From: Bacteroidales bacterium
GTDB taxonomy: Bacteria; Bacteroidota; Bacteroidia; Bacteroidales; VadinHA17
Reading direction: 5' to 3'
Length of the DNA: 64,000 bases
Assembly: GCA_963668715.1 (NCBI GenBank)
Contig: OY764960.1
Coordinates: 2,959,602 to 3,023,601, forward strand
How positions within the stretch are numbered: position 1 is the first letter of the stretch; each line of letters opens with the position of its first letter. This document shows positions 19,951 to 55,411 of this stretch, piece by piece. Below the pieces are notes generated by a model. It ran no database searches. It was not told the origin of the DNA and worked only from the letters and a program-made list of their open reading frames with translations. The translations under genes were made by a program, and so were the position numbers.

Positions 19951-21225
19951 ATGAAGAATACCCGTCGCGAGTTTATTAAAATCGGAGGATTAACCATAGC
20001 AGGTACCGGTTTTGTAAGCCCTTTCCTGAAATCATGTGTCGAAAATAGCACCGGTAGTACTGACCATGGCCTTGTAAGCGAGGTTGGAAATATTGAACCT
20101 CTGAACGAGCAGGATTATAGAAGGAGATATGAGAAGTTACTCGAGTTGATGATTCAGCAGGATATCGAAGCTTTGTTTATCGAGGGTAGTACGAACCTTT
20201 CTTACTTTTTCAATTTGTCGTGGTGGCTGAGTGAAAGGACCTTCGGACCCGTTATTAATGTGAAGAAAGAACCTGTATGGATCTGTCCTGAATTTGAGCT
20301 TGAAAGGGCAAAAGAACAGATACCGGAGGGTCATGAGATAAGGACATGGGCCGAACATGAATCCCCATACACTGTTATGGCCGGTATTGTCGCGGATCTT
20401 AATATAGACAAGAGGAAAGTAGCGGTTGGGCCTTCCGTAAGAAGCTTTATCTCAGAAGGATTTCAAAGATCTCTGCGAACAGATATACTTGATGGCAGCT
20501 TGGCTGTAAACATGGTAAGGGCTGTTAAGTCGGAAAAAGAGATAGGCTTTATGGAACTGGCAAATAATATTACCAAGAAGGCTTACAAATACGGATTCAG
20601 CCGGTTGGAGGAAGGGATGACAAAAGAACAGCTTGCAGAACATATAAGGTTTGCACATTCGGAAATGGGAACCAGCGGTAGTGGCGGCCCCAGTTTCGGT
20701 TTCACTTCTGCTTTCCCGCATGGTACCAATCAGGTGAGGAATCTGCACGAAGGGGATATTGTGCTGGTTGACGGAGGTTGTATTATCGAAGGCTTCAGGA
20801 GTGATGTTACCCGTACCATAGTATTTGGAAAACCCAGTGACAGGCAGAGGGAGGTTTTTAATGTTGTTCTGGAAGCCAAGCATGAGGCTCATAATGCAAT
20901 AAAGCCAGGAATACAGGCAGGAGAAATAGACAAAGCGGCAAGAAAGGTGATAGAGGGTGCAGGTTTCGGTCCCGGTTATAAATATTTTGCTCACAGGCTG
21001 GGTCATGGTATAGGAATGGACTATCATGAATATCCATATCTTGTTAAGGATAATCCCTTCATATTACAACCCGGGATGATATTCAGTAATGAACCGGGTA
21101 TATATATTTACGGGGAATTCGGTATAAGGATTGAAGATTGTTTTGTTGTAACTGAAGATGGAGCAAGAATGCTGGGAGGGATGGTTACTACGGATATTGA
21201 ACATCCTTTCGGGATGACGGACTGA
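19951..21225 (+). CDS. M24 family Xaa-Pro peptidase with a twin-arginine signal
   Basis: Tat-like RREFIKIGGLTIAG, plus M24 metal-ligand motifs (VLVDGG, HRLGHGIGMDYHE, SNEPGIY, IRIED). Confidence 0.8.
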   Translation: MKNTRREFIKIGGLTIAGTGFVSPFLKSCVENSTGSTDHGLVSEVGNIEPLNEQDYRRRYEKLLELMIQQDIEALFIEGSTNLSYFFNLSWWLSERTFGPVINVKKEPVWICPEFELERAKEQIPEGHEIRTWAEHESPYTVMAGIVADLNIDKRKVAVGPSVRSFISEGFQRSLRTDILDGSLAVNMVRAVKSEKEIGFMELANNITKKAYKYGFSRLEEGMTKEQLAEHIRFAHSEMGTSGSGGPSFGFTSAFPHGTNQVRNLHEGDIVLVDGGCIIEGFRSDVTRTIVFGKPSDRQREVFNVVLEAKHEAHNAIKPGIQAGEIDKAARKVIEGAGFGPGYKYFAHRLGHGIGMDYHEYPYLVKDNPFILQPGMIFSNEPGIYIYGEFGIRIEDCFVVTEDGARMLGGMVTTDIEHPFGMTD

Positions 21226-21736
21226 TTATCTGGTAAAGTAGTTCATTGCTGAAGCCATCTTTTTCTCTGAGCCAGTCTTTTTTAACACCTATTTTAATGA
21301 AGCCCAGTTTTTCGAACAGGGAAACGGAAGGTTTATTCTCCTCGGTAATATTGCAATAAACCTGGTGAAGCTTAAGATGGTTAAAGCAATAGTCCAGAAC
21401 ACATTGCAAAGCCATTCTTGCAAAGCCTTTTCTCCTCTCATCCTTTTCAGCAATAAGTATGCCTACTCCTGCACGCAGATTAAACGGATCGAAATCAAAG
21501 ATATCGACGGTTCCGATCGTCTTTCCGCTGTCTCCGATAATTATCATGAATCTTATCTGGCCTGTCTCAAAAACGGATTTATTCGAATTTTCTATATATT
21601 TTCTGAGTGTATACTTTGAAAACGGGCTAAGTGTGCTACTTACCAGCCATGTCTCAGGGTCGTTTTCCCAATCATAAAGAAGATCAAGGTCTTCAGGTTC
21701 GGGAGCCCTTAATTTTATTTTATCGCAGATCATCAT
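21188..21736 (-). CDS. GNAT family N-acetyltransferase (RimJ/RimL-like)
   Basis: KLRAPEPEDLDLLYDWEND, RRKGFARMALQCVLDYCF. I chose the ATG at 21736 (or 21733), which overlaps the stop of the upstream gene. The 3' end overlaps the convergent M24 gene by 38 nt. Confidence 0.75.
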   Translation of the reverse strand: MMICDKIKLRAPEPEDLDLLYDWENDPETWLVSSTLSPFSKYTLRKYIENSNKSVFETGQIRFMIIIGDSGKTIGTVDIFDFDPFNLRAGVGILIAEKDERRKGFARMALQCVLDYCFNHLKLHQVYCNITEENKPSVSLFEKLGFIKIGVKKDWLREKDGFSNELLYQIISPSSRKDVQYP

Positions 21737-24230
21737 GTCTATCCTGAAGTGTTTGTTTTTCAAGTATATCAATTGCCTTAATAAAAGCTGATCCGTAACC
21801 GGCATCATGTATCACGGAAAGAGCCTGTCTTGCCCTTGAATAACCCTGGTATTCACCAATGATATAACGGTAGAAACCATCTGCACTTTTTACTTCCCTG
21901 ACATTTTCAAGTCCTCTGAAATCTCCTGATGCTTTATTCTTAAGAGCATGGATCTGAATAGTATAAAGCTCAGGCAGTTCTTTCCGCGGGGCTGATGATT
22001 CGGGAAGGTCATATTCGGTTATTATATATGAATTTTTGAATCCTTTATCTGTGAGATCGGTCAGGCAGGAGAGAGCATCAAGTCTTGTCCTGAATCCGCC
22101 GAGAGCATATATATAATTGTTATTTAGCCGGTATTCGTTGATGAATGAGAACTGGCTTATCCCGAAGGTACTGAAGAATCCGGCTGAAAGCGGAGTGGCG
22201 GATTCCTTTATAACCACATAGAAACCGTAGTTATAAGGCTTCTTAAGATGGACAGGTACATTGAGATATGATTCAACAGGCAACAGATAACCGTTATTTT
22301 TAATATTGATGCTTACTCTGCGGTTGTATATGCGTCCGGTGGGATTGTCTTTTCCATTGGGTGTGAAATTGTCAGTAATAAAGTTCACTTCACCAGGCGC
22401 TTTTGTACTGAGTCTGTTTATATCAATACCCGCCTTAACCAGATAATCCCTTACTTTTACCGCTCTTTCCATGGAGAGCTTTTTATTATATGAAGCGCTT
22501 CCGATAGCATCGGCATATCCTTCGATTATGATATTCAGGTCGGGGTGGGAGAGAAGAACAGGTATAATTTTTTCAATTTCAATTTTGGCTTCTCTTTTAA
22601 GTCCGGTACTGTCGAAGCCGAAGAGAATATTCCTGATAGCAAGAAATTCACCGCTTGCAACCTTTTCAGGTATCAGATTACCGGTAATATATATATCCTT
22701 TTGTTCATATGACTCCGGAATACACAAGTTCACCGTATCAGTAATATATCCCGGGTATCTGAAGATAAAGTCAAACATTCCTTTTTGCAATTCTGAACTG
22801 AAGCTTCCTGATGAGTCGGCTCTGACAGATGCAAGCAGGGAGTCTTTTCCTGCGGCATATACTGATATTTCCAGTTGTGAAGGAATTATATCCAGTCCGT
22901 CTTCAAGAGACACATTCCCCATGGCAGTAATATGTCCGGATACGGCTTTTCCCAGTATACCCACAATATATATATTACTGAATGAAGAAGTGTCATCAGG
23001 GGGTATGCTTAATATTCCGGACCCTTCTGCACGTGGTACAAAATTAAGATCGTCCGATGTGGTATTAATTGGATATGGTATATGTACGGGATATGACCAG
23101 GTCCTGTCTTTACGGGAGTAGAAGATATCGTAACCGCCAAAGCCTTCGTGACCGGTAGAACTAAAATAGAGTGTTCCGGTTTTACTGTCATAATACGGGG
23201 TATTTTCTTCGAGAGAGGTGTTTATGACAGGGCCCAGATTTACGGGCTGAGATGCATTGAATTTATCATCAAGCTCTGCACTGTATATATCCAGACTGCC
23301 GTAGCCGCCGGGCATGTTGCTTGCAAAATACAGCATGGTACCATCGTTACTGATGCAGGCATGAGACTCCCAGTATTTTGTGTTCACATTCTTTCCAAAT
23401 TTATCAAGTCGGCTCCAGTTACCGTTTATCCGGTGCGACAGGTAAATATCTCCTCTGATACCGTTATTACGGGATATAACCAGTGTTTTACCATCTTTGG
23501 TTATCGAATTGGTATACATATCCTTATAATTACCGAGGTCGTCACTGATATTTTCAGGCACTGACCATGAGCCCGTATTTTTATATGAGCAATATATCCT
23601 GTTCTCATACTTCTCTTTTACAGTAAAGACAAATACAGAATCATTACCTGAGATAACCGGATTTATGGCATTACGGAAATCTGTTAGCCATGGCGCCAGC
23701 AGTTCTCTGGAGATCATCATGCTGGTGTCGGCTGACAGCAGAGTAAGACATGCTTTTATCTGTATATCTATATACTCAATTTCCCCTGCCTTCGTGACTT
23801 TTAGAAGGTTACGGTATTTTTTATAGCTTTCAACAGCTTTTTCGAGTTCCATGTTTACCTGATATGCAAATGCCAGGTAATAGTTTACATCAATAGGTGA
23901 TTTATCGCCAAGAGTTGAATAAGCAGGATCGTCAACCCATGATGATGAAGCATATTCGAGCAGTTCAAGTGCTTTTTTCTTTTTGCCCGTCATATTGAGG
24001 TAGCATACTCCCAGCTTATAATTCAGATTATGATTGCCGGGTTGTGTCTCCATAAGCTTCTCATATATACTGGCAGCTTCAGTGTAGTTTTCATCATATA
24101 TGAAATATCCGTCTGCCTCATTTGTCAGTCTTGTAATAAGTCTGATGTCGGACAATTCATCCTGGGCAGTAATATTAAGTATGCAAATAGAAAGAAAAAC
24201 AGTAATTATAGAGAACCTGACGGCATTCAT
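21720..24230 (-). CDS. TPR + TolB-like PD40 beta-propeller + OmpA-like + two SPOR-like domains (paralog D)
   Basis: Signal peptide and TPR-like helices (YKLGVCYLNMTGKKKKALELLE). PD40-like blades (YWESHACISNDGTMLYFASNMPGGYGSLDIY, YFSSTGHEGFGGYDIFYS). OmpA_C motif (NIIIEGYADAIGSASYNKKLSMERAVKVRDYL). C-terminal SPOR-like segments (YTIQIHALKN...GFYRYIIGEYQGYSRARQAL). Confidence 0.7.
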   Translation of the reverse strand: MNAVRFSIITVFLSICILNITAQDELSDIRLITRLTNEADGYFIYDENYTEAASIYEKLMETQPGNHNLNYKLGVCYLNMTGKKKKALELLEYASSSWVDDPAYSTLGDKSPIDVNYYLAFAYQVNMELEKAVESYKKYRNLLKVTKAGEIEYIDIQIKACLTLLSADTSMMISRELLAPWLTDFRNAINPVISGNDSVFVFTVKEKYENRIYCSYKNTGSWSVPENISDDLGNYKDMYTNSITKDGKTLVISRNNGIRGDIYLSHRINGNWSRLDKFGKNVNTKYWESHACISNDGTMLYFASNMPGGYGSLDIYSAELDDKFNASQPVNLGPVINTSLEENTPYYDSKTGTLYFSSTGHEGFGGYDIFYSRKDRTWSYPVHIPYPINTTSDDLNFVPRAEGSGILSIPPDDTSSFSNIYIVGILGKAVSGHITAMGNVSLEDGLDIIPSQLEISVYAAGKDSLLASVRADSSGSFSSELQKGMFDFIFRYPGYITDTVNLCIPESYEQKDIYITGNLIPEKVASGEFLAIRNILFGFDSTGLKREAKIEIEKIIPVLLSHPDLNIIIEGYADAIGSASYNKKLSMERAVKVRDYLVKAGIDINRLSTKAPGEVNFITDNFTPNGKDNPTGRIYNRRVSINIKNNGYLLPVESYLNVPVHLKKPYNYGFYVVIKESATPLSAGFFSTFGISQFSFINEYRLNNNYIYALGGFRTRLDALSCLTDLTDKGFKNSYIITEYDLPESSAPRKELPELYTIQIHALKNKASGDFRGLENVREVKSADGFYRYIIGEYQGYSRARQALSVIHDAGYGSAFIKAIDILEKQTLQDRHDDLR

Positions 24231-26152
24231 TCCCTGTTCCCCCTGAAGACGGTTTTTACAAATATTTCTTCAGGGTAACCCTGCCTGATAAGCTCATCCC
24301 TTCTTGTGTAAGCTTCACCCTTAGTCTCGAACTGGCCGGTTGTATATCTGTAGAAACGGTCGTCATCGTTATACACTACAGTTACCCTGGTATTCTTAAA
24401 GAAGCTCACATCGACAGGATTATAAAGAGCCATAAGCTGAATGGTGTAATACAGAACATCAGCATTGGTTGAGTCGGAATCACTTACATCTTTTATAATA
24501 ACATCGGTAACCAGTATTGATGAGTCTATCTCATCTATAACAGTGACTTTGGAAAAATCAAGTTTTTCAAATTCTTCAGGTATTTCGGCCACATAGTTAG
24601 TGTCGGGTTCAAGTGTAATGTTGATTATTTCCTCTTTTGAAGGGTGATCCTCAAGTATAGTAAGTTCCCTGGTAACAGGTATGTATGCAGGTCCTTCATA
24701 GGTAAGGCTGTAGATATCAGGTTTAACAAGGAAGCTGTAATGCCCGGATGTTTTGTTGGGATAACCGACGTCCAGGGTATCTTCAGATGAATTACTGTAC
24801 AGTATTATCCTGTAGTCATCAGTAAATTCTATTATTGTATCACTCAGGCTGAGCACTCCCTTTATTTCAAAAGTAGGTATTGACTGCTTCTCACCCAGAT
24901 TGATATAATAAATATCTTTTTCCTTATATCCTGTTACCATTGAATAAAAGGCATTTTGCCCGTTAATATATGGAAAGAAGAACAGGTCATCGTCAGGTGT
25001 ATTGACAGGGTAGCCGATATTGGAAGGGCTTTTCCATATACCACCTATGAGTCTTGATCTGAAGATATCATATCCCCCTATATTAGTGTGGCCTTCGGAG
25101 CTGAAGAACAGGATGGAGTCATTATTGGTTATAAAGGGTGTGTCTTCATTAAAAGGAGTATTTATTGCTGATCCCAGGTTTCTGGGATTTCCCCATTCTC
25201 CCTTACTGTCTTTTTCGGATACATATATATCCAGGCCTCCTTCTCCACCGTCCCTGTTTGATGTAAAATACAGTTTGTCTCCGCCGGATGATATTGAAGC
25301 ATGGGATTCATAGAACTTTGTATTTATATTCCTGTTCAGTTTTTGTACTCTTGACCATGACCCGTTTTCAAATGTCGACATATATATGTTTCCGTCGAAA
25401 TTATCATTTTTGTACAGGTATAGTTCAGTGCCGTCATAATTCAGCGAGTTGGAACTGCAGTCGGTATCCCCGCCGAGTTGTGCTGTAATATCTACAGGTT
25501 CGCCCCATTCACCTCTTTCTTTCTTAACATAATATATAGTATTTTCAAGACCTCTTTTTTCAGTATAGACCAGTGTGTTCCCGTCGCCGCTGACAGTTGG
25601 GTTAATATTAACCGAGCCCAGGTTTATGTCCGGACCCAGGCTTTCCTTACTGAAGTCAACGGGTTTTTCAACGGATGTCATAGCATTTCTGCATGCGCGT
25701 ATCTGCTGGTCGATAAAGTCTGCATTTTCCAGTTCTCCTTTGTCGGGCATCAGTTCATTGAGTTTAGCATATGTGCCCAGTGCTTTTTCAAATTCATAAT
25801 TGATCCTGTATGCAGAGGCAAGCGCAAAATATGCTTCAAGCGGAGCTCTGGTTTCCCTGAAAGATTCGGAGTTGGCATCATAGCTGGAATTCTTCACCGC
25901 ATCTTCAAGGTATGGTATGGCTTTTGTTTTTTCATCGGGAATATGCAGATAACAATTACCTATTTTAAATTTGATATTGGCATTTCCCGGCATATATTCG
26001 TCAAGAATGATGTAGAGCGGGTTTGCCAGTTCATATTCTCCGTACAGGTAATGTGATTCAGCCTCCACAAATATTTCGCGGAGATCGTCATTCTGCCCAT
26101 TGATATTAACAGCAATCAGGAGAATTATGACAGTAATAAGACTTCTATGCAT
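24227..26152 (-). CDS. TPR + TolB-like PD40 beta-propeller + SPOR-like domain (paralog C)
   Basis: The N-terminal TPR/PD40 architecture matches its neighbours (FYESHASISSGGDKLYFTSNRDGGEGGLDIY, FFSSEGHTNIGGYDIFRS). The C-terminus YYTIQLMALYN...RFYRYTTGQFETKGEAYTRRDELIRQGY is SPOR-like. It overlaps paralog D by 4 nt. Confidence 0.7.
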   Translation of the reverse strand: MHRSLITVIILLIAVNINGQNDDLREIFVEAESHYLYGEYELANPLYIILDEYMPGNANIKFKIGNCYLHIPDEKTKAIPYLEDAVKNSSYDANSESFRETRAPLEAYFALASAYRINYEFEKALGTYAKLNELMPDKGELENADFIDQQIRACRNAMTSVEKPVDFSKESLGPDINLGSVNINPTVSGDGNTLVYTEKRGLENTIYYVKKERGEWGEPVDITAQLGGDTDCSSNSLNYDGTELYLYKNDNFDGNIYMSTFENGSWSRVQKLNRNINTKFYESHASISSGGDKLYFTSNRDGGEGGLDIYVSEKDSKGEWGNPRNLGSAINTPFNEDTPFITNNDSILFFSSEGHTNIGGYDIFRSRLIGGIWKSPSNIGYPVNTPDDDLFFFPYINGQNAFYSMVTGYKEKDIYYINLGEKQSIPTFEIKGVLSLSDTIIEFTDDYRIILYSNSSEDTLDVGYPNKTSGHYSFLVKPDIYSLTYEGPAYIPVTRELTILEDHPSKEEIINITLEPDTNYVAEIPEEFEKLDFSKVTVIDEIDSSILVTDVIIKDVSDSDSTNADVLYYTIQLMALYNPVDVSFFKNTRVTVVYNDDDRFYRYTTGQFETKGEAYTRRDELIRQGYPEEIFVKTVFRGNRE

Positions 26153-26159
26153 AGCAGGC

Positions 26160-27437
26160 TTACTTAAATGTTATTTTATATATATCCTCCTTACCAAAAC
26201 CTTTTCCTTCCCTGAGCACTGAAATATAACCTGTACTTCCGTCCCCTACAGGCATAAAGAAATAGTCGTCATCCGAACTGTTGAGGGGGTAACCCAGGTT
26301 TTCCGGTTTTGACCATTTCCCGTTATCAAGCATGTCAGACCTGAAGAGGTCAAATCCACCCATATTATAATGACCCTGTGAGCAGAAAAACAGTTGCTTC
26401 CCGTTATTAACAAGAAAAGCCCTGTCTTCATTAAACGGTGTATTTATTTCAGGCCCCAGATTAATTGCTTTTCCCCATTCCCCTTTCTCGTTCCTGTAAC
26501 ATACATACAGATCAAGACCTCCCATTCCTCCTGGTCTGTCGGATGAAAAGATCATTGCTGACCCGTCGTCAGAAACAGTAGCATGAGATTCCCAGTAGTT
26601 TGTATTTATATTTCCGGATAGAGGCTCTGCAGCCGACCATTTAATGCCGTCGTAGCGGCTTAGATATATGTCGCTTTGGTCATTATTGTCTTTCGACATA
26701 TAAAGTGTGTTACCATTATCGGCAAGGCAGGATATATAAAGGTCACCGTCGGATTTCAGATCAGGGGTGATATTAACAGGAGGGCTCCATCTTCCTTTCT
26801 CCCTGAACGAAAAAAAGACGGCATCGTAAAACTTGAGAGAAGACATATACACAAACCGTAGTCCGTCGGCTGATATCACAGGATTAAAGTTACTGTTTGA
26901 GTCGTTAAACTGTTCCCCGATATTTTCCTCATCATATTTTACGGGTTTGCTCATCAGGTTTTTAGCATTATCGCAGACATCGATCTGATGTTCAATGAAC
27001 AATATATTATCGGTGTCATCATCGAGTAATGTTTCCCTGTATTTCTTATATGCTTCTTTGGCTTTGTCGAACTGGTAGTTTATTCTGTATGCGTTACCCA
27101 GGAAATACCAGGCCGTATAGGGTGAGGTTGCCTGACGCAGCGACCCTTCCTTATACGATGCGCCGGAGTATTTTGCAGCATCTTCAAGATACTCTATAGC
27201 TTTGTTTTTTTGTCCGGCTATTCCCATGTAACATATTCCAATCCTGTAGGAAAGGTTATGATTATCCGGATAGGCTTTAAATAGTTCCAGATAGTAAGGC
27301 AGAGCATCGGTATAATCTTCAAACATAAGAAAGTACTCAGCTTCCAGAAATGTTTCCTGATCTTTCTTAAAATTCTGGGAGTAAATGTTACTGCCAATGA
27401 TTGTAAAAAGAATCAGACTTGTTAATATTCGAGTCAT
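26160..27437 (-). CDS. TPR + TolB-like PD40 beta-propeller protein (paralog B, no C-terminal extension)
   Basis: Signal peptide, TPR-like region (YRIGICYMGIAGQKNKAIEYLE) and PD40 blades (YWESHATVSDDGSAMIFSSDRPGGMGGLDLY, FFCSQGHYNMGGFDLFRS). The gap to paralog C is 7 nt. Confidence 0.7.
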   Translation of the reverse strand: MTRILTSLILFTIIGSNIYSQNFKKDQETFLEAEYFLMFEDYTDALPYYLELFKAYPDNHNLSYRIGICYMGIAGQKNKAIEYLEDAAKYSGASYKEGSLRQATSPYTAWYFLGNAYRINYQFDKAKEAYKKYRETLLDDDTDNILFIEHQIDVCDNAKNLMSKPVKYDEENIGEQFNDSNSNFNPVISADGLRFVYMSSLKFYDAVFFSFREKGRWSPPVNITPDLKSDGDLYISCLADNGNTLYMSKDNNDQSDIYLSRYDGIKWSAAEPLSGNINTNYWESHATVSDDGSAMIFSSDRPGGMGGLDLYVCYRNEKGEWGKAINLGPEINTPFNEDRAFLVNNGKQLFFCSQGHYNMGGFDLFRSDMLDNGKWSKPENLGYPLNSSDDDYFFMPVGDGSTGYISVLREGKGFGKEDIYKITFK

Positions 27438-27534
27438 ATCCCGGGAGATTTGATTATAACAAAAATATTAAATTAATAAGAATATAAAAACCTGAATTAA
27501 TATATATAAAGCCAGACATTCATATTGTTATTAT

Positions 27535-30036
27535 TTAATCATTTTTTTTCTTTTTTTTTCCGGCTCCGAAAATTATTACAGTAACAGCCACTCCTCCCAG
27601 GATTATCCACAGAACCCACAGCTTTCTTCCTTTACCGGACTGGATATAGTCAACAATTTCTTCTGCCGTCTTATCGGTAGCGTTTATTATTTTCGAGAAT
27701 GCTTCAAATACTTCGTCCTTTGTATAGCCAAGCCTGTCTGTATTGCTTAGGAGGTAGCTGATTATTTCCTCGGGGCTGTGTTTTTTAAGTTCATCGAGAT
27801 CTATCTTTTCCAGTGATGCTTTCAGGTTATGATCTGCATACTGTACAAGCCTGTCCAGATATTCTTCGGCGCTGTTTCCAGACTCGGCAGACATAGCAGC
27901 GATAAGCTTTGTAAGAAGTTCTTTTTCAGCACCGTCCTCTATTGCCACCGAATACAATGATTCAAGCCATTCTCCTGCTTTCTTGATCTGTTTTTCATTT
28001 GTTTTCAGAATAGCTTCTTTAATTGTATTATCTGTTTCACTTACTTCAGTTATGATCTGACCCATGCGGTCGATAGATTCAGTCTCTTTTGTCTGAGTTG
28101 CCTTAAGACTGTCAAGAGCTCTCTGTTGAGCAAGCAGTACCTGTGGATCGGGTTCAGTAACCGGTTCTGTAATCTCCGGCTTAATTTCAGGTTCACTGGC
28201 AAGGAACTCAAAATCTTTTATAGTGACATTGTTGAACCGGTCCCTGATAGTAAATTTAAGTTTGTTATCACCTGTGACTGCTTCAGTTTTATAGTTAAAT
28301 GACGGTTCGTTAATATAGAATTCTTCTGTTTTAATCAGGCTGTCGCCCTGCCAGTGTTCAACGGTCAGTATTGAATTGGGTTCAAGTGTAAGGTCAAACA
28401 TGGCAGTATCACCCCGGCTGTATATAAGTGAGTCGAATACAACCGGTATTTCTATTTCAGCAATGAAGTCTGTTTTATGTAGTTGTTCTTCAGGCATCAG
28501 AATGCTGTCGGAGGGGTGTATCAGATCTATTCTCAGGTCTTTTTCAATTTTTTCGGAACCATCAGACTGATATACAACTTTATAATCCCCTTGTGGTATT
28601 TCGAACTCATACCGGCCGGTACGGGGATCAGAGTATACAGCTACCAGTGTATCCATGTTAGACTTTTCGAGTGCATAAATTTTCACGCTGTCGCTGTACT
28701 GGCTTAAAAGGTCCTTAAGTTTTACCATTCCTCTGACATAGAATTTTCTCGGATGTTCTTCGGAGAATACTTCCACCCTGTAAATATCCTCCATCCCAAA
28801 ACCATTAGGGTCAAACATTGAAACATATGCCAGATATCCCTCGCCTACAGGTGAGAAAAACACATCATCATCAGTAGTATTAACCGGGTATCCCATATTG
28901 ACAGGGACAGACCACTGGCCGTTTTCCATTTTTGTTGAATAGAAAATATCATGGCCTCCCATGTTAAAGTGCCCTCTGGAGCTAAAGAACAGAACGTTGT
29001 CGCTGCTGCCGAGGAAAGGTGTCTCTTCGTTAAACGGCGTATTGATAACAGGCCCCATGTTCACGGCCGGTCCCCAGTTGTCCAGGCTGTCTTTTTCGGA
29101 TACATAAATATCCAGCCCGCCGTAGCTGTCTTTACGGTTGCTTGTAAAGTAAAGTTTCTTGCCGTCGTTTGAGATGCATGCATGCGATTCCCAGTATTTG
29201 GTGTTTATGTTTTCGTTAAGTTTTTCAGCCGGCGTCCATCGTCCGTCAACGTAGTTACTGACGTAAATATTTCCGTCATAGCCGTCGTCCCTGTAGATAT
29301 ACAACTCTGTTCCGTCATGTGACAGGCACGTTGAATAACCGTCGTCAATCAGCAACTCTTCCTGTATCTGTACGGGAGGAGACCATACCGAATCAACTTT
29401 TTTTGAATAGAATATACCTTCATAAAAGGGCAATTCCCGTGTAAACACTATTGTTTTTTCATCGGCTGATACTACCGGACTGACATCTGATCTCTGGTCG
29501 TTTATAAATTCCCCCTGGTTCTCACGCTTGAGGTAAAGGGGGGTTTTCATAAGCTCTTTTGCATTTCTGCAGGCTTCAATTTGCAGCTTTACGATTGTTG
29601 AATCATACATTTTATGATCCATGCCCCTGTAGAAGGAACCGTATGTTTCAATTGCCTTATCCAGTTGGTTTGTTATTCTGTATGCTGTTGCGAGGTAGAA
29701 CAGGGCATCATAGGGGGCCTCTGTTTCTTTGAAACGGCCTTCCTTGTATTTCAGGTTAATATGTTGAACAGCACCCTGCAGATATGGTAATGCTTTTTCT
29801 TTTTCTCCCGGTGTATTAAGATAGCAGACCCCGATCCTGTATTTATAGTTATAGTTTTCAGGGTAGATATCCAGCAGATCCAGGTAAAGAGGGAGCGCTT
29901 CGGGGTATTCCTCGAACAACATCCAGGACTCGGCCTCAAAAAACATATCCTTGATTTCCCTCCTGCTTTGCGCTGATATTGTAGCTGAACTTAATAATAG
30001 GGCAATCAGTAGGAGTTTAATAGCCTGTCTGTTCAT
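27535..30036 (-). CDS. TPR + TolB-like PD40 beta-propeller + Ig-like/helical extension + C-terminal TM tail anchor (paralog A)
   Basis: Signal peptide and the same TPR/PD40 core (YWESHACISNDGKKLYFTSNRKDSYGGLDIY, FFSSRGHFNMGGHDIFYS). A ~400-aa extension ends in LWVLWIILGGVAVTVIIFGAGKKKKKND. Confidence 0.7.
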   Translation of the reverse strand: MNRQAIKLLLIALLLSSATISAQSRREIKDMFFEAESWMLFEEYPEALPLYLDLLDIYPENYNYKYRIGVCYLNTPGEKEKALPYLQGAVQHINLKYKEGRFKETEAPYDALFYLATAYRITNQLDKAIETYGSFYRGMDHKMYDSTIVKLQIEACRNAKELMKTPLYLKRENQGEFINDQRSDVSPVVSADEKTIVFTRELPFYEGIFYSKKVDSVWSPPVQIQEELLIDDGYSTCLSHDGTELYIYRDDGYDGNIYVSNYVDGRWTPAEKLNENINTKYWESHACISNDGKKLYFTSNRKDSYGGLDIYVSEKDSLDNWGPAVNMGPVINTPFNEETPFLGSSDNVLFFSSRGHFNMGGHDIFYSTKMENGQWSVPVNMGYPVNTTDDDVFFSPVGEGYLAYVSMFDPNGFGMEDIYRVEVFSEEHPRKFYVRGMVKLKDLLSQYSDSVKIYALEKSNMDTLVAVYSDPRTGRYEFEIPQGDYKVVYQSDGSEKIEKDLRIDLIHPSDSILMPEEQLHKTDFIAEIEIPVVFDSLIYSRGDTAMFDLTLEPNSILTVEHWQGDSLIKTEEFYINEPSFNYKTEAVTGDNKLKFTIRDRFNNVTIKDFEFLASEPEIKPEITEPVTEPDPQVLLAQQRALDSLKATQTKETESIDRMGQIITEVSETDNTIKEAILKTNEKQIKKAGEWLESLYSVAIEDGAEKELLTKLIAAMSAESGNSAEEYLDRLVQYADHNLKASLEKIDLDELKKHSPEEIISYLLSNTDRLGYTKDEVFEAFSKIINATDKTAEEIVDYIQSGKGRKLWVLWIILGGVAVTVIIFGAGKKKKKND

Positions 30037-30085
30037 CTGCGTTAGGTTTCATTTTCCCAAAACTACTAAATATTAAGAGAATTAT

Positions 30086-30119
30086 AAAAAAAAATGGGTC
30101 AAGAAAAATTCGACCCATT
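30086..30119 (-). terminator. Rho-independent terminator downstream of the E2 acyltransferase gene
   Basis: The minus strand reads AATGGGTCgaatttttcttGACCCATT followed by a T9 run. Confidence 0.7.
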
Positions 30120-30143: not shown

Positions 30144-31475
30144 TTAAAGTGCCAGGTCCTGTATTGATTTGTTCTGCACAAATCCTTCCAGGTTCTCCTT
30201 TAATACTTTAAGAAATAATCCGCCCAGCGCCCCGTCAATTACACGATGGTCATAGCTTAGCGAAAGGTATACAATGGTACGGATACCTATGAGATCGCCT
30301 GAGGGGGATTCAATTACTACCGGCATTTTTCTTGCGGCACCGATACCAAGAATTGCTGCCTGCGGCTGATTGATAATGGGTGATCCCATAAGAGTGCCGG
30401 CAGTACCATAATTAGTTACCGAGAATGTTCCACCCGTTATTTCCTCCGGCTTCAGCTTATTGTTTCTGGCTCTTACGGCAAGGTCATTTACCTCGCGGGC
30501 AAGCCCCAGGATGCTTTTCTCATCAGCCTTTTTTATGACCGGTACGATGAGGTTGCCTCCGGGCAGAGCTGTTGCCATTCCTATGTTTATATTTTTCTTC
30601 TTTATTATTCTGTCTCCGTCTACTGAAACATTGATCATGGGTACCTGTCTGACAGCACGTGCCGTAGCTTCAATAAATATCGGGGTAAGCGTGAGTTTTA
30701 TCCCTTCGCGGTCATGGAATTTATCCTTTACTTTTTCTCTCCATTTGACTATATCGGTAATATCCACATCAATATATGATGTAACGTGAGGTGATGTATG
30801 TTTGGATCTGACCATATGTTCGGCAATAATTTTGCGCACACGGTCCATCTCAATGATCTCATCTCCTTCAGCAGTCATTGGCGGAGCCTCAGATACGGCT
30901 GTTTTTGCTACGGACTTATCCTCAACTTCCTCCCTTACCGGTTTAGCCTGGCTATAACGCGATGCTATGTAGCTCAGCACATCATCCTTTGTTATTCTTC
31001 CATCCATCCCCGTCCCTTTGACCTTATCCAGTTCATTATAACTCAGGTTCTCTGTTTCTGCTATCTTCCTGACCAACGGGGACAGGAATTTATCGCCTGG
31101 CGTTCTGCTTTTTAGTCCTTCGGCTGTTTTTTTCTCTTCATCCTTTTGTGTAATGAAAGCAGAGGATGCTTTTTTTACTTCTCTGAAATCCTTTTCAACC
31201 TCCGGTGCCGATTTCTCAGATGATGTTTCGAGTGAATCACTCTCAATATAAGCCAGTACATCGCCCACCTTTGGAATATCGCCTTCTTTAAAGGCTATAT
31301 CCCTAAGTATTCCTGAGGCCGGAGCAGGTATTTCAGTATCTACCTTATCAGTTGCCACTTCCACCACCGGGTCGTCTTCTTCGACCTTGCTTCCTTCACT
31401 GATAAGCCATTTGGTTATAGTTGCTTCGATCACACCTTCACCCATTGCCGGTAAAAAAATCTCGATTTTTCCCAT
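30144..31475 (-). CDS. 2-oxoacid dehydrogenase complex E2 component (dihydrolipoamide acyltransferase)
   Basis: Lipoyl domain with VATDKVDTEIPAP, a peripheral subunit-binding segment and the catalytic motif SYDHRVIDGA. Confidence 0.85.
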   Translation of the reverse strand: MGKIEIFLPAMGEGVIEATITKWLISEGSKVEEDDPVVEVATDKVDTEIPAPASGILRDIAFKEGDIPKVGDVLAYIESDSLETSSEKSAPEVEKDFREVKKASSAFITQKDEEKKTAEGLKSRTPGDKFLSPLVRKIAETENLSYNELDKVKGTGMDGRITKDDVLSYIASRYSQAKPVREEVEDKSVAKTAVSEAPPMTAEGDEIIEMDRVRKIIAEHMVRSKHTSPHVTSYIDVDITDIVKWREKVKDKFHDREGIKLTLTPIFIEATARAVRQVPMINVSVDGDRIIKKKNINIGMATALPGGNLIVPVIKKADEKSILGLAREVNDLAVRARNNKLKPEEITGGTFSVTNYGTAGTLMGSPIINQPQAAILGIGAARKMPVVIESPSGDLIGIRTIVYLSLSYDHRVIDGALGGLFLKVLKENLEGFVQNKSIQDLAL

Positions 31476-54436: not shown

Positions 54437-55411
54437 ATGATCAGAGATGTAAAAATACTTATTCTTGTCTTATGTTTTGCACCTGTTGCTTATCATGCTG
54501 AAGGACAGGATACGGAGTATTTATCATTTTATTATAATCCGGTCAGGTCCAACCCTGCCATGACAGGTTCCGAAGGGGTCGGAAAACTGAGAATGGTGTA
54601 CAGGGATTATTATCCGGGGAGGGGGCTGGATCTTTTTAGTATAGATTGTTCATATGATACCTATATAGACAGGATTCACGGGGGGCTGGGCTTTTTTGTG
54701 TCCGAAAATATGCCGGGCACCGTTTTAAATGACCTCAGGGCAGGCGCCGGGTATTCTTACCACCTGAGGGCAAGCAGGGATCTGTATGTAAATGCCGGGT
54801 TTATGGCTTCTGTAATTTACAGGGGGCTTAATGCCCGGGGAATAATCTTACCTGAACAGATCGACCCTCTGCAGGGTATTGTCTTTCCTGCTTCTGAGAT
54901 TATCAGTTCAGGAGCACATACTTCGTTTGATGCAGGTGTGGGCTTTCTGTTCAGCTATATGAATTATCATGCAGGTATATCCGTCAGCCATCTTTTTAAG
55001 CCTGCTCTGGGAAACAACGGAGTTGATGAATCAAGGCTGGACAGGAGATACTCTTTTCATGGATCGGCGGTTTTCTTACAGGGAGCAGGGGATATAAGCC
55101 TTATTCCCGGATTCCTGTTTAATATTCAGGGTAATAGTACAACAGGCGCTGCCGGACTGAGCTGCCTGTATAAAAACTTTACAGCTAATATAATGCCATT
55201 TGTAAACACAGGGCAGGGATTGATTTTTGTACAATCCGGTATAGGCTTTATAAAAGGACAGGTTGAGATTGGATATAATTATAATTTTGTACCCGTGGCA
55301 GGAAGCGGACTTCAACCATTCACTCTTTCAAATCAGGTGTATGTTTCAATAGGTTTAAATAATGTTGAAAAAAGAGATATTATTAAGGCAATAATATATC
55401 CTAAAATGTAG
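54437..55411 (+). CDS. PorP/SprF family type IX secretion membrane protein
   Basis: 324 aa with a signal peptide, YYNPVRSNPAMTG motif and beta-barrel pattern typical of PorP/SprF. Confidence 0.75.
   Translation: MIRDVKILILVLCFAPVAYHAEGQDTEYLSFYYNPVRSNPAMTGSEGVGKLRMVYRDYYPGRGLDLFSIDCSYDTYIDRIHGGLGFFVSENMPGTVLNDLRAGAGYSYHLRASRDLYVNAGFMASVIYRGLNARGIILPEQIDPLQGIVFPASEIISSGAHTSFDAGVGFLFSYMNYHAGISVSHLFKPALGNNGVDESRLDRRYSFHGSAVFLQGAGDISLIPGFLFNIQGNSTTGAAGLSCLYKNFTANIMPFVNTGQGLIFVQSGIGFIKGQVEIGYNYNFVPVAGSGLQPFTLSNQVYVSIGLNNVEKRDIIKAIIYPKM

Follow-up and report, generated by a model that had tools for sequence, protein, structure and literature searches.

What is gained by giving one secreted scaffold four different C-terminal ends is the question raised by four consecutive genes in a 64,000-nucleotide window (G000:C1:2959602-3023601, the whole stretch of DNA that was analysed) of an environmental Bacteroidales genome assembled as a single contig of 4.27 Mb. 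To our knowledge, the Bacteroidota are without a recognisable TolB/Pal/CpoB set, and the attachment of their outer membrane to the wall or to the inner membrane is poorly understood. The four genes, here called paralogues A–D, were taken in the initial annotation for a new CpoB-TolB-Pal fusion. Judged by sequence, they are instead diverged paralogues within the Bacteroidota PorE / CHU_0125 superfamily, a very large family of tetratricopeptide repeat (TPR)-propeller proteins of which PorE and CHU_0125 are, as far as we know, the only members to have been studied. The PorE/CHU_0125-type scaffold is thus the known part of the locus, and the new part is a conserved array in which that scaffold is provided with several alternative anchors. 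On analogy with the studied members, the interpretation preferred here, with some reserve, is that A–D would be like-headed periplasmic adaptors with different attachments, acting in envelope cohesion. The array and the gene overlapping its end are laid out as follows.

27535..30036, minus strand: paralogue A, 833 aa, with (in order) signal peptide, TPR, PD40 propeller, two beta-sandwiches, Pro/Glu linker, helical module, C-terminal transmembrane (TM) helix and KKKKK tail (open reading frame; PD40, 54.9 bits; AlphaFold2 domain boundaries)
26160..27437, minus strand: paralogue B, 425 aa, with signal peptide, TPR and propeller only (open reading frame; family hidden Markov models, HMMs)
24227..26152, minus strand: paralogue C, 641 aa, with signal peptide, TPR-like region, propeller, beta-sandwich and SPOR
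21720..24230, minus strand: paralogue D, 836 aa, with signal peptide, TPR, propeller, beta-sandwich, OmpA_C, SPOR and SPOR
21188..21736, minus strand: GNAT gene (Acetyltransf_3, RimJ/RimL-like), overlapping the end of D (PF13302, 82.5 bits)

The shared head

The four proteins share 33–43% identity over ~420–540 aa in pairwise BLASTP comparisons (E = 1e-76 to 1e-132), a similarity that is far beyond chance, and their open reading frames agree exactly with the four minus-strand paralogues first described, each said to join a signal peptide, a TPR-like region and a PD40/TolB-like propeller. PD40 (PF07676) scored over its gathering score of 20.9 bits in all four (A, 54.9; B, 56.0; C, 55.7; D, 41.2 bits). 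Pfam TPR matches were weak or near the cut-off in A, B and D; the Pfam TPR scan of C gave no match, although C is homologous to the other paralogues from residue 4–8 onward (BLASTP). The AlphaFold2 model of A (48 homologues as input; mean pLDDT, 82) divides the head into two regions.

29548..29964, minus strand: TPR-like helical region of A, residues 25–163 (all-helical by DSSP of the AlphaFold2 model; weak Pfam TPR matches)
28771..29529, minus strand: PD40 beta-propeller of A, residues 170–422, with a TolB-like fold (PD40 match, model and Foldseek)

The best compact Foldseek matches of the A propeller were the TolB propellers 2w8b and 1c5k (E ~1e-7; root-mean-square deviation, ~5 Å; 240–265 columns; 12–14% identity), and because it superposes best on these, 'TolB-like' is correct as a description of the fold. 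The N-terminus of A is TPR and not the TolB alpha/beta domain in the same model. The signature motifs that had been singled out in all four proteins proved to be PD40-repeat motifs, which the true PorE of this genome also carries.

Conservation of the head was assessed over 430 core columns in an alignment of 59 A, 62 B, 55 C and 35 D orthologues. Within each group, 99–145 of these columns were ≥90% conserved, and at 37 columns one and the same residue was ≥90% conserved across the four groups, Q23, C71, C156 and the PD40 motifs being among them. Columns that were conserved but different between groups numbered only 4, by which functional divergence of the heads was rejected; on these alignments, the heads look equivalent and the ends would make the difference. 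The Cys pair C71/C156 (A numbering; region of window positions 29826 and 29571) lies in the TPR domain, is ≥90% conserved in all four groups and probably forms a periplasmic disulfide. The signal peptides of all four are of the signal-peptidase-I type with a conserved Gln at +1 (Q23), and the sole Cys in the D signal region stands in an atypical LSIC context.

Family placement

Among the NCBIfam models, PorE (NF052230) and CHU_0125 (NF053607) were the closest named families for all four full-length proteins (114–206 bits), each of the two being the best or second-best full-length match. The NF052230 scores (A, 117; B, 142; C, 119; D, 205 bits) fall below the curated cut-off of 600 bits, and the NF053607 scores of A–D (135–187 bits) below that of 620 bits. 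A genuine PorE is encoded elsewhere in the genome (C1:791299-793266; NF052230, 703.6 bits, above 600), with 24–27% identity to A–D, and an NF053607 scan of the genome's proteins found none above 620 bits.

PorE of Porphyromonas gingivalis (PG1058) has a periplasmic TPR, a PD40/WD40 propeller, a CRD-like beta-sandwich and OmpA_C. Paralogue D has all four in this order, with the OmpA_C peptidoglycan-binding motif kept and two SPOR domains in addition; A, B and C are without OmpA_C. The array differs from PorE in that the signals of A–D are of the signal-peptidase-I type with +1 Gln and not lipoprotein signals (there is no PorE-type lipobox Cys), in the absence of a linked PorP or type-B cargo gene, and in its new ends, namely a TM anchor with helical module (A), none (B) and SPOR (C). 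In published work, PorE is a TPR-WD40-CRD-OmpA_C protein acting in type IX secretion (T9SS), in which OmpA_C and its peptidoglycan-binding residues are essential and the propeller is implicated in PorP binding (PMC12773672). CHU_0125 of Cytophaga hutchinsonii is a TPR-PD40-OmpA_C 'Pal homologue' whose deletion led to six-fold more outer-membrane vesicles, sensitivity to harmful compounds and outer-membrane protein loss (PMC5891637). This phenotype, with vesiculation, sensitivity and mislocalised outer-membrane proteins, is of the kind that would follow from the role proposed for the array, although CHU_0125 is a single gene with no array and no TM-anchored, anchor-less or SPOR versions. Because this architecture had already been published, the supposed CpoB-TolB-Pal fusion is an existing protein family.

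Membership in the TolB, Pal or CpoB families was ruled out by the family models, both genome-wide and for A–D, whose scores fell far below the cut-offs. With TolB (TIGR02800; cut-off, 343 bits), A–D scored 12–26 bits and the best protein of the genome 57 bits. With Pal (TIGR02802; cut-off, 125 bits), the OmpA_C domain of D scored 44–49 bits, and D is 836 aa long and not a lipoprotein. With CpoB/YbgF (TIGR02795; cut-off, 90 bits), only B gave a trace (14.3 bits, E = 0.046), and the genome best of 55.6 bits lies elsewhere. No protein in the genome reached any of the three cut-offs, so the whole-genome check suggested in the initial annotation returned no canonical TolB, Pal or CpoB. The Escherichia coli Tol-Pal/CpoB system has the same domain types as the array (a six-bladed-type PD40 propeller fold, OmpA_C and TPR); A is predicted to span from the inner membrane as TolA does, and envelope cohesion is the shared proposed role. 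The array differs in having no TolB N-terminal domain and no linked TolQR motor, in that the A anchor is C-terminal and without the TolA polar TM motif, and in that its domains are joined within a single polypeptide, as they are in PorE.

In the literature, no description was found of the four-gene set or of a SPOR- or TM-anchored PorE relative, and in databases the array proteins are named only as 'hypothetical', 'PD40 domain-containing' or 'tetratricopeptide repeat protein'. The initial annotation knew of no such system that had been characterised; the superfamily architecture is published and partly characterised.

The C-terminal ends

The paralogues had been said to differ only in their C-termini. 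Distinct terminal modules were found, as claimed; the paralogues differ in more than these, because A, C and D each carry one or two beta-sandwich (CRD/Ig-like) domains between propeller and anchor. CarboxypepD_reg gave only weak matches, to the corresponding stretches of D and a fifth, unlinked copy. Beyond its propeller, A is composed of the following parts.

28195..28746, minus strand: beta-sandwich 1 (residues 431–519) and beta-sandwich 2 (residues 538–614), CRD/Ig-like (AlphaFold2 secondary structure)
Residues 617–630: disordered Pro/Glu linker (AlphaFold2)
27637..28146, minus strand: helical module, residues 631–800 (tail model; pLDDT, 88)
27538..27630, minus strand: C-terminal TM helix (LWVLWIILGG...) and KKKKKND tail, the TM element being residues 803–832 (model; homologue alignment)

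The helical module matched no Pfam family, no PDB sequence and, with Foldseek, no known fold (best E = 0.69). In a set of 1.84 billion proteins it was confined to 241 representative clusters, nearly always joined to the same PD40 head; since neither its sequence nor its fold has a relative, it would count as a periplasmic module of a new kind. In longer A homologues (950–2108 aa), the terminal helical unit is repeated 2–20 times; an internal repeat within the window's own A tail was not significant (score reached by 12 of 500 shuffles; hhalign, 4%). Overall, A-type proteins range in length from ~700 to >2000 aa (P0121, 2108 aa; P0125, 1485 aa; the open reading frame in G415:C56, 1523 aa).

The TM helix and Lys tail described in the initial annotation are a constant feature of A, a TM helix with an Arg/Lys tail being kept in 48 of the 48 aligned homologues (consensus, ...LWILWILLGxG...RRKKK). 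Some pipelines tag such homologues as 'LPXTG-motif', and a sortase or exosortase signal was considered and rejected, neither motif nor enzyme being present: none of the 48 A tails has a PEP, LPXTG or GlyGly sorting motif before the TM helix, and the genome (97.7% complete) gave no XrtF or EpsH-family match as an exosortase gene. By the positive-inside rule, a positively charged tail lies on the cytoplasmic side. Because of this rule and the lack of both sorting motif and exosortase, the A tail is predicted to be a plain inner-membrane anchor with its tail in the cytoplasm. The Lys tail is encoded in the window by an A9-G-A8 tract (27536-27562, minus strand), slippage at which would alter only the final few cytoplasmic residues of A; orthologues mix Arg and Lys codons, and the tract is not conserved.

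Paralogue B is predicted to be a soluble periplasmic protein. Its clade is sister (98/92) to the OmpA-type clade of variant arrays, so that B has probably lost its anchor. The ends of C and D carry wall-binding modules, predicted as follows.

24230..24487, minus strand: SPOR of C, ~residues 556–641 (own sequence sub-threshold; family-level support)
22281..22658, minus strand: OmpA_C peptidoglycan-binding domain of D, ~residues 525–650, with the motif GYADAIGSASYNKKLSMERA at residue 571 (PF00691, 69.7 bits)
21996..22277, minus strand: first SPOR of D, ~residues 652–745 (hhalign against the second SPOR, 98.7%, E = 2e-16)
21741..21965, minus strand: second SPOR of D, ~residues 756–830 (PF05036, 24.7 bits, or 31.4 bits with the tail alone; cut-off, 21)

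The D OmpA_C score compares with a PF00691 cut-off of 27.2 bits; the canonical GxxDxxGxxxxNxxLSxxRA motif (Asp/Asn/Arg) is present as GYADAIGSASYNKKLSMERA, its residues being equated with D576/N584/R591 of PorE by motif only. Among the OmpA_C structures that the domain also matched is that of the C-terminal domain of PorE (6TOP; E = 4.6e-11). The C tail alone scored 14.2 bits (E = 0.056) against PF05036, below the cut-off of 21. PF05036 matched at E ≤ 0.01 in 21 of 30 orthologous C tails, and the C-tail profile aligned with the D SPOR (hhalign, 98.7%, E = 4e-16); at the family level, the C tail is a SPOR domain by these profile comparisons. The D-tail profile matched the CwlC SPOR structure 1x60 (E = 0.002). 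The proposed domain assignments thus withstood the Pfam/HMMER check, PD40, OmpA and the second SPOR of D directly above cut-off and the SPOR of C and first SPOR of D through profile homology.

Conservation of the array

Loci were surveyed in the best 80 of 575 stretches encoding A relatives in species-representative genomes, and these best 80 all came from uncultured Bacteroidales or Bacteroidia metagenome-assembled genomes. The commonest arrangements were ABCD followed by the GNAT gene (30 loci) and ABC followed by the GNAT gene (17 loci), with a variant of A, two OmpA-type members and a core-only member at 5 loci; of the 58 loci at which a following gene was visible, 53 had the GNAT gene in that place, and the median C–D gap was -1 nt. 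Within the genus, the order A-B-C-D was seen in all 15 sampled species. Phylogenetic profiling had been proposed at the outset. Of the 401 genomes sampled from the order, 32 carried the A tail in a profile search, and these represent 25 of 237 genera and at least 12 families (a single-sequence tail probe under-counted the carriers, with 14 compared to 32). Across these at least 12 families, A-B-C-(D) order holds while the identity of A falls to ~41–45%. The A-B-C-(D)-GNAT arrangement is of old date and has remained stable.

A maximum-likelihood tree built from 85 heads placed each of the four paralogues in a clade of its own (bootstrap 100/100), the same species branching being repeated in each, and joined all array members in a clade (96/98) apart from the genome's PorE and other paralogues. 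A recent local duplication is ruled out because the tree resolves four ancient orthologous groups.

Conserved order can also arise with no joint function, were the four independent paralogues from old tandem duplications and kept adjacent only by the general gene order of the lineage. The flanks are syntenic over the same genome range, with the aminotransferase, GT2, E2 acyltransferase and peptidase genes in place at most loci, and conserved order alone is thus no proof of coupling, since part of it may be general synteny. D and sometimes B are lost, and a -7-box-like motif ahead of B suggests that A may have a separate transcript. Set against this, the array order is intact at loci with different upstream genes (L046 and L112) and held across the families named above, the overlap of C with D and the short spacer between B and C suggest translational coupling, and each group is separately under purifying selection, as seen in its ≥90% conserved core columns. 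Independent paralogues without a common role are accordingly very improbable.

Proposed role in the envelope

If the four act as envelope adaptors, the A head would be held at the inner membrane by the C-terminal TM helix, with the two beta-sandwiches, a flexible linker and the helical module as its spacer; B would be free in the periplasm; C would be bound to peptidoglycan through one SPOR domain, and D through its OmpA_C domain and pair of SPOR domains. If PorE and CHU_0125 are a guide, the like heads may engage a common or similar partner, which could be a protein of the outer membrane or the periplasm or another of the heads, and the different ends would anchor this partner both at the inner membrane and at the wall. 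In this way, the array would form a non-covalent envelope-cohesion module, functionally Tol-Pal- or Lpp-like, in a lineage without canonical TolB, Pal and CpoB. As the set is conserved as a unit, the envelope-tethering role that had been suggested for it is reasonable; the division-site role suggested in the same breath has no other footing than the SPOR domains that C and D carry, and about one-third of arrays have no D.

Several observations weigh against a four-part tether. One species of the same genus is without D; among the surveyed arrays, D is missing from about one-third and B is occasionally missing, so that the four-part logic is not obligatory. The synteny of the flanks, noted above, counts here as well. 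The constant last gene is a cytoplasmic-type GNAT, of which a tether model gives no account, and no partner gene for an outer-membrane barrel or a motor lies within the cluster. Finally, a copy number of ~1 to ~20 for the A module fits a fixed-length periplasmic spacer poorly, long A-types being too long for a simple rigid spacer because their terminal helical unit is repeated up to ~20 times.

SPOR domains of this type prefer denuded, septal glycan in other bacteria, and C (with one) and D (with two) end in SPOR as do the division proteins FtsN, DamX, DedD and RlpA, as well as CwlC (1x60). This would suit a division-site machine, a Tol-Pal/CpoB analogue recruited to the septum via SPOR and coordinating outer-membrane constriction with septal peptidoglycan remodelling, and the TolB-like fold of the propeller, the Pal-like OmpA_C of D and the absence of canonical TolB, Pal and CpoB from the genome point the same way. 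Unlike those division proteins, C and D carry their SPOR domains on a scaffold of PorE type, and these domains may bind septal glycan. Against a division-site machine, SPOR is lacking in A and B, loss of D is frequent, variant arrays swap SPOR members for plain OmpA-type members, no TolQ/R/A-like motor or division gene is linked to the array, and A–D stay far under the cut-offs of the TolB, Pal and CpoB models. A septal machine of this kind is, on balance, quite unlikely. It is likewise unlikely, if a shade less so, that A-B-C-(D) would be a self-contained, undescribed trans-envelope complex of environmental Bacteroidales, in which the inner-membrane A (with its lineage-specific helical module of varying copy number), the free B and the wall-bound C and D assemble through their like heads, replacing Tol-Pal/CpoB where the canonical system is lacking and recruited to the septum via SPOR.

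With one head and four alternative anchors (inner membrane, none, SPOR, and OmpA_C with SPOR), the array is a natural experiment on where such a scaffold must be fixed, and it gives defined constructs for probing what the head binds. As the carriers are uncultured environmental bacteria, practical impact will be modest until a tractable host is found.

Possible relation to type IX secretion

The heads could alternatively belong to T9SS accessory adaptors, binding PorP/SprF-type shuttle barrels and fixing type-B cargo complexes to the wall (C and D) or to the inner membrane (A), in which case it is secretion or surface display, and not envelope cohesion in general, that the array would serve. 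PorE is the closest named family, and its propeller interacts with PorP (PMC12773672). In Flavobacterium johnsoniae, five operons each pair a PorE homologue with a type-B substrate and an SprF-like shuttle (PMC12618676). As in the array, several PorE paralogues are thus found in one genome, and these have been proposed as static anchors of complexes to the wall (PMC12618676). The genome studied here has 7 PorP-family genes, one of them directly upstream of another PD40 paralogue (C1:2357651-2360003, plus strand), and PorP genes occur in 32 of the 32 genomes with A-type tails. This co-occurrence is uninformative, since PorP is present in 95% of the sampled genomes (381 of 401; 0.95^32 = 0.19). 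Unlike the known PorE-homologue operons, which have one PorE homologue each together with an SprF/PorP barrel and cargo, the array has four paralogues with neither, and no PorP/SprF or type-B C-terminal domain gene was found in or next to it at ~75 loci surveyed. Further, the genome has its own bona fide PorE, and the array family branches as a clade of its own, apart from PorE. A T9SS function is possible but doubtful, and adaptors in envelope cohesion remain the preferred reading.

At the locus just mentioned (L004), the PorP/SprF-family gene is followed by a gene for a 475-aa protein with PD40 and two PKD domains, an arrangement resembling the F. johnsoniae PorE-homologue/SprF operons.

Transcription and neighbouring genes

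Spacing within the array is 97 nt between A and B and 7 nt between B and C, with a 4-nt overlap of C and D. The overlap of D with the GNAT gene is 89 nt with the longest GNAT open reading frame and ~14–17 nt with the start matching the 173–182-aa orthologues. The junctions first reported (7 nt, a 4-nt overlap, and D running into a RimJ-like GNAT gene) were reproduced from the open reading frame coordinates and the PF13302 match. Three candidate signals were located.

30093..30119, minus strand: terminator-like 10-bp hairpin and T-run between the upstream E2 gene and A
30058..30065, minus strand: TAGTTTTG, a Bacteroidota -7-box-like motif ~22 nt upstream of the A ATG (suggestive only)
27460..27467, minus strand: TATTTTTG, a -7-box-like motif ~23 nt upstream of the B ATG, in the 97-nt A–B spacer (suggestive only)

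The TANNTTTG motif occurs in the whole window at chance level (58 occurrences compared to 60.8 expected). From this arrangement, A is possibly transcribed on its own, and B-C-D-GNAT is read as tightly coupled.

The neighbours of the array are genes for an E2 acyltransferase, a GT2, an aminotransferase, the GNAT and a peptidase. The E2 acyltransferase (30144-31475, minus strand) is complete, with lipoyl, E3-binding and catalytic domains, and lies alone between the array and the GT2 gene, unaccompanied by E1 or E3 genes; an E2 gene stands upstream of A in 56 of 73 loci. It is unlikely to be part of the operon and is read as lying outside the unit because of the hairpin and T-run that follow it, the median E2–A gap of 234 nt and the existence of some arrays without E2.

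Other paralogues in the genome

The genome encodes a second OmpA-type paralogue and two further TPR/PD40 proteins. A fifth member of the subfamily is unlinked to the array (C1:347651-349615, minus strand; 654 aa) and matches C along its entire length, SPOR tail included, at 50% identity; its place in the tree is among the C-types of other lineages and not with this genus, and it is thus an old duplicate or a transfer. Within the window, ~24 kb from the array, a PorP/SprF-family gene (54437-55411, plus strand; TIGR03519, 123 bits) is followed by open reading frames of 507 and 431 aa. A TPR/PD40 paralogue of 532 aa (L006; C1:3463116-3464714, plus strand) ends in 5 near-perfect tandem 14-residue units (PDTLTEVTDSLIIK).

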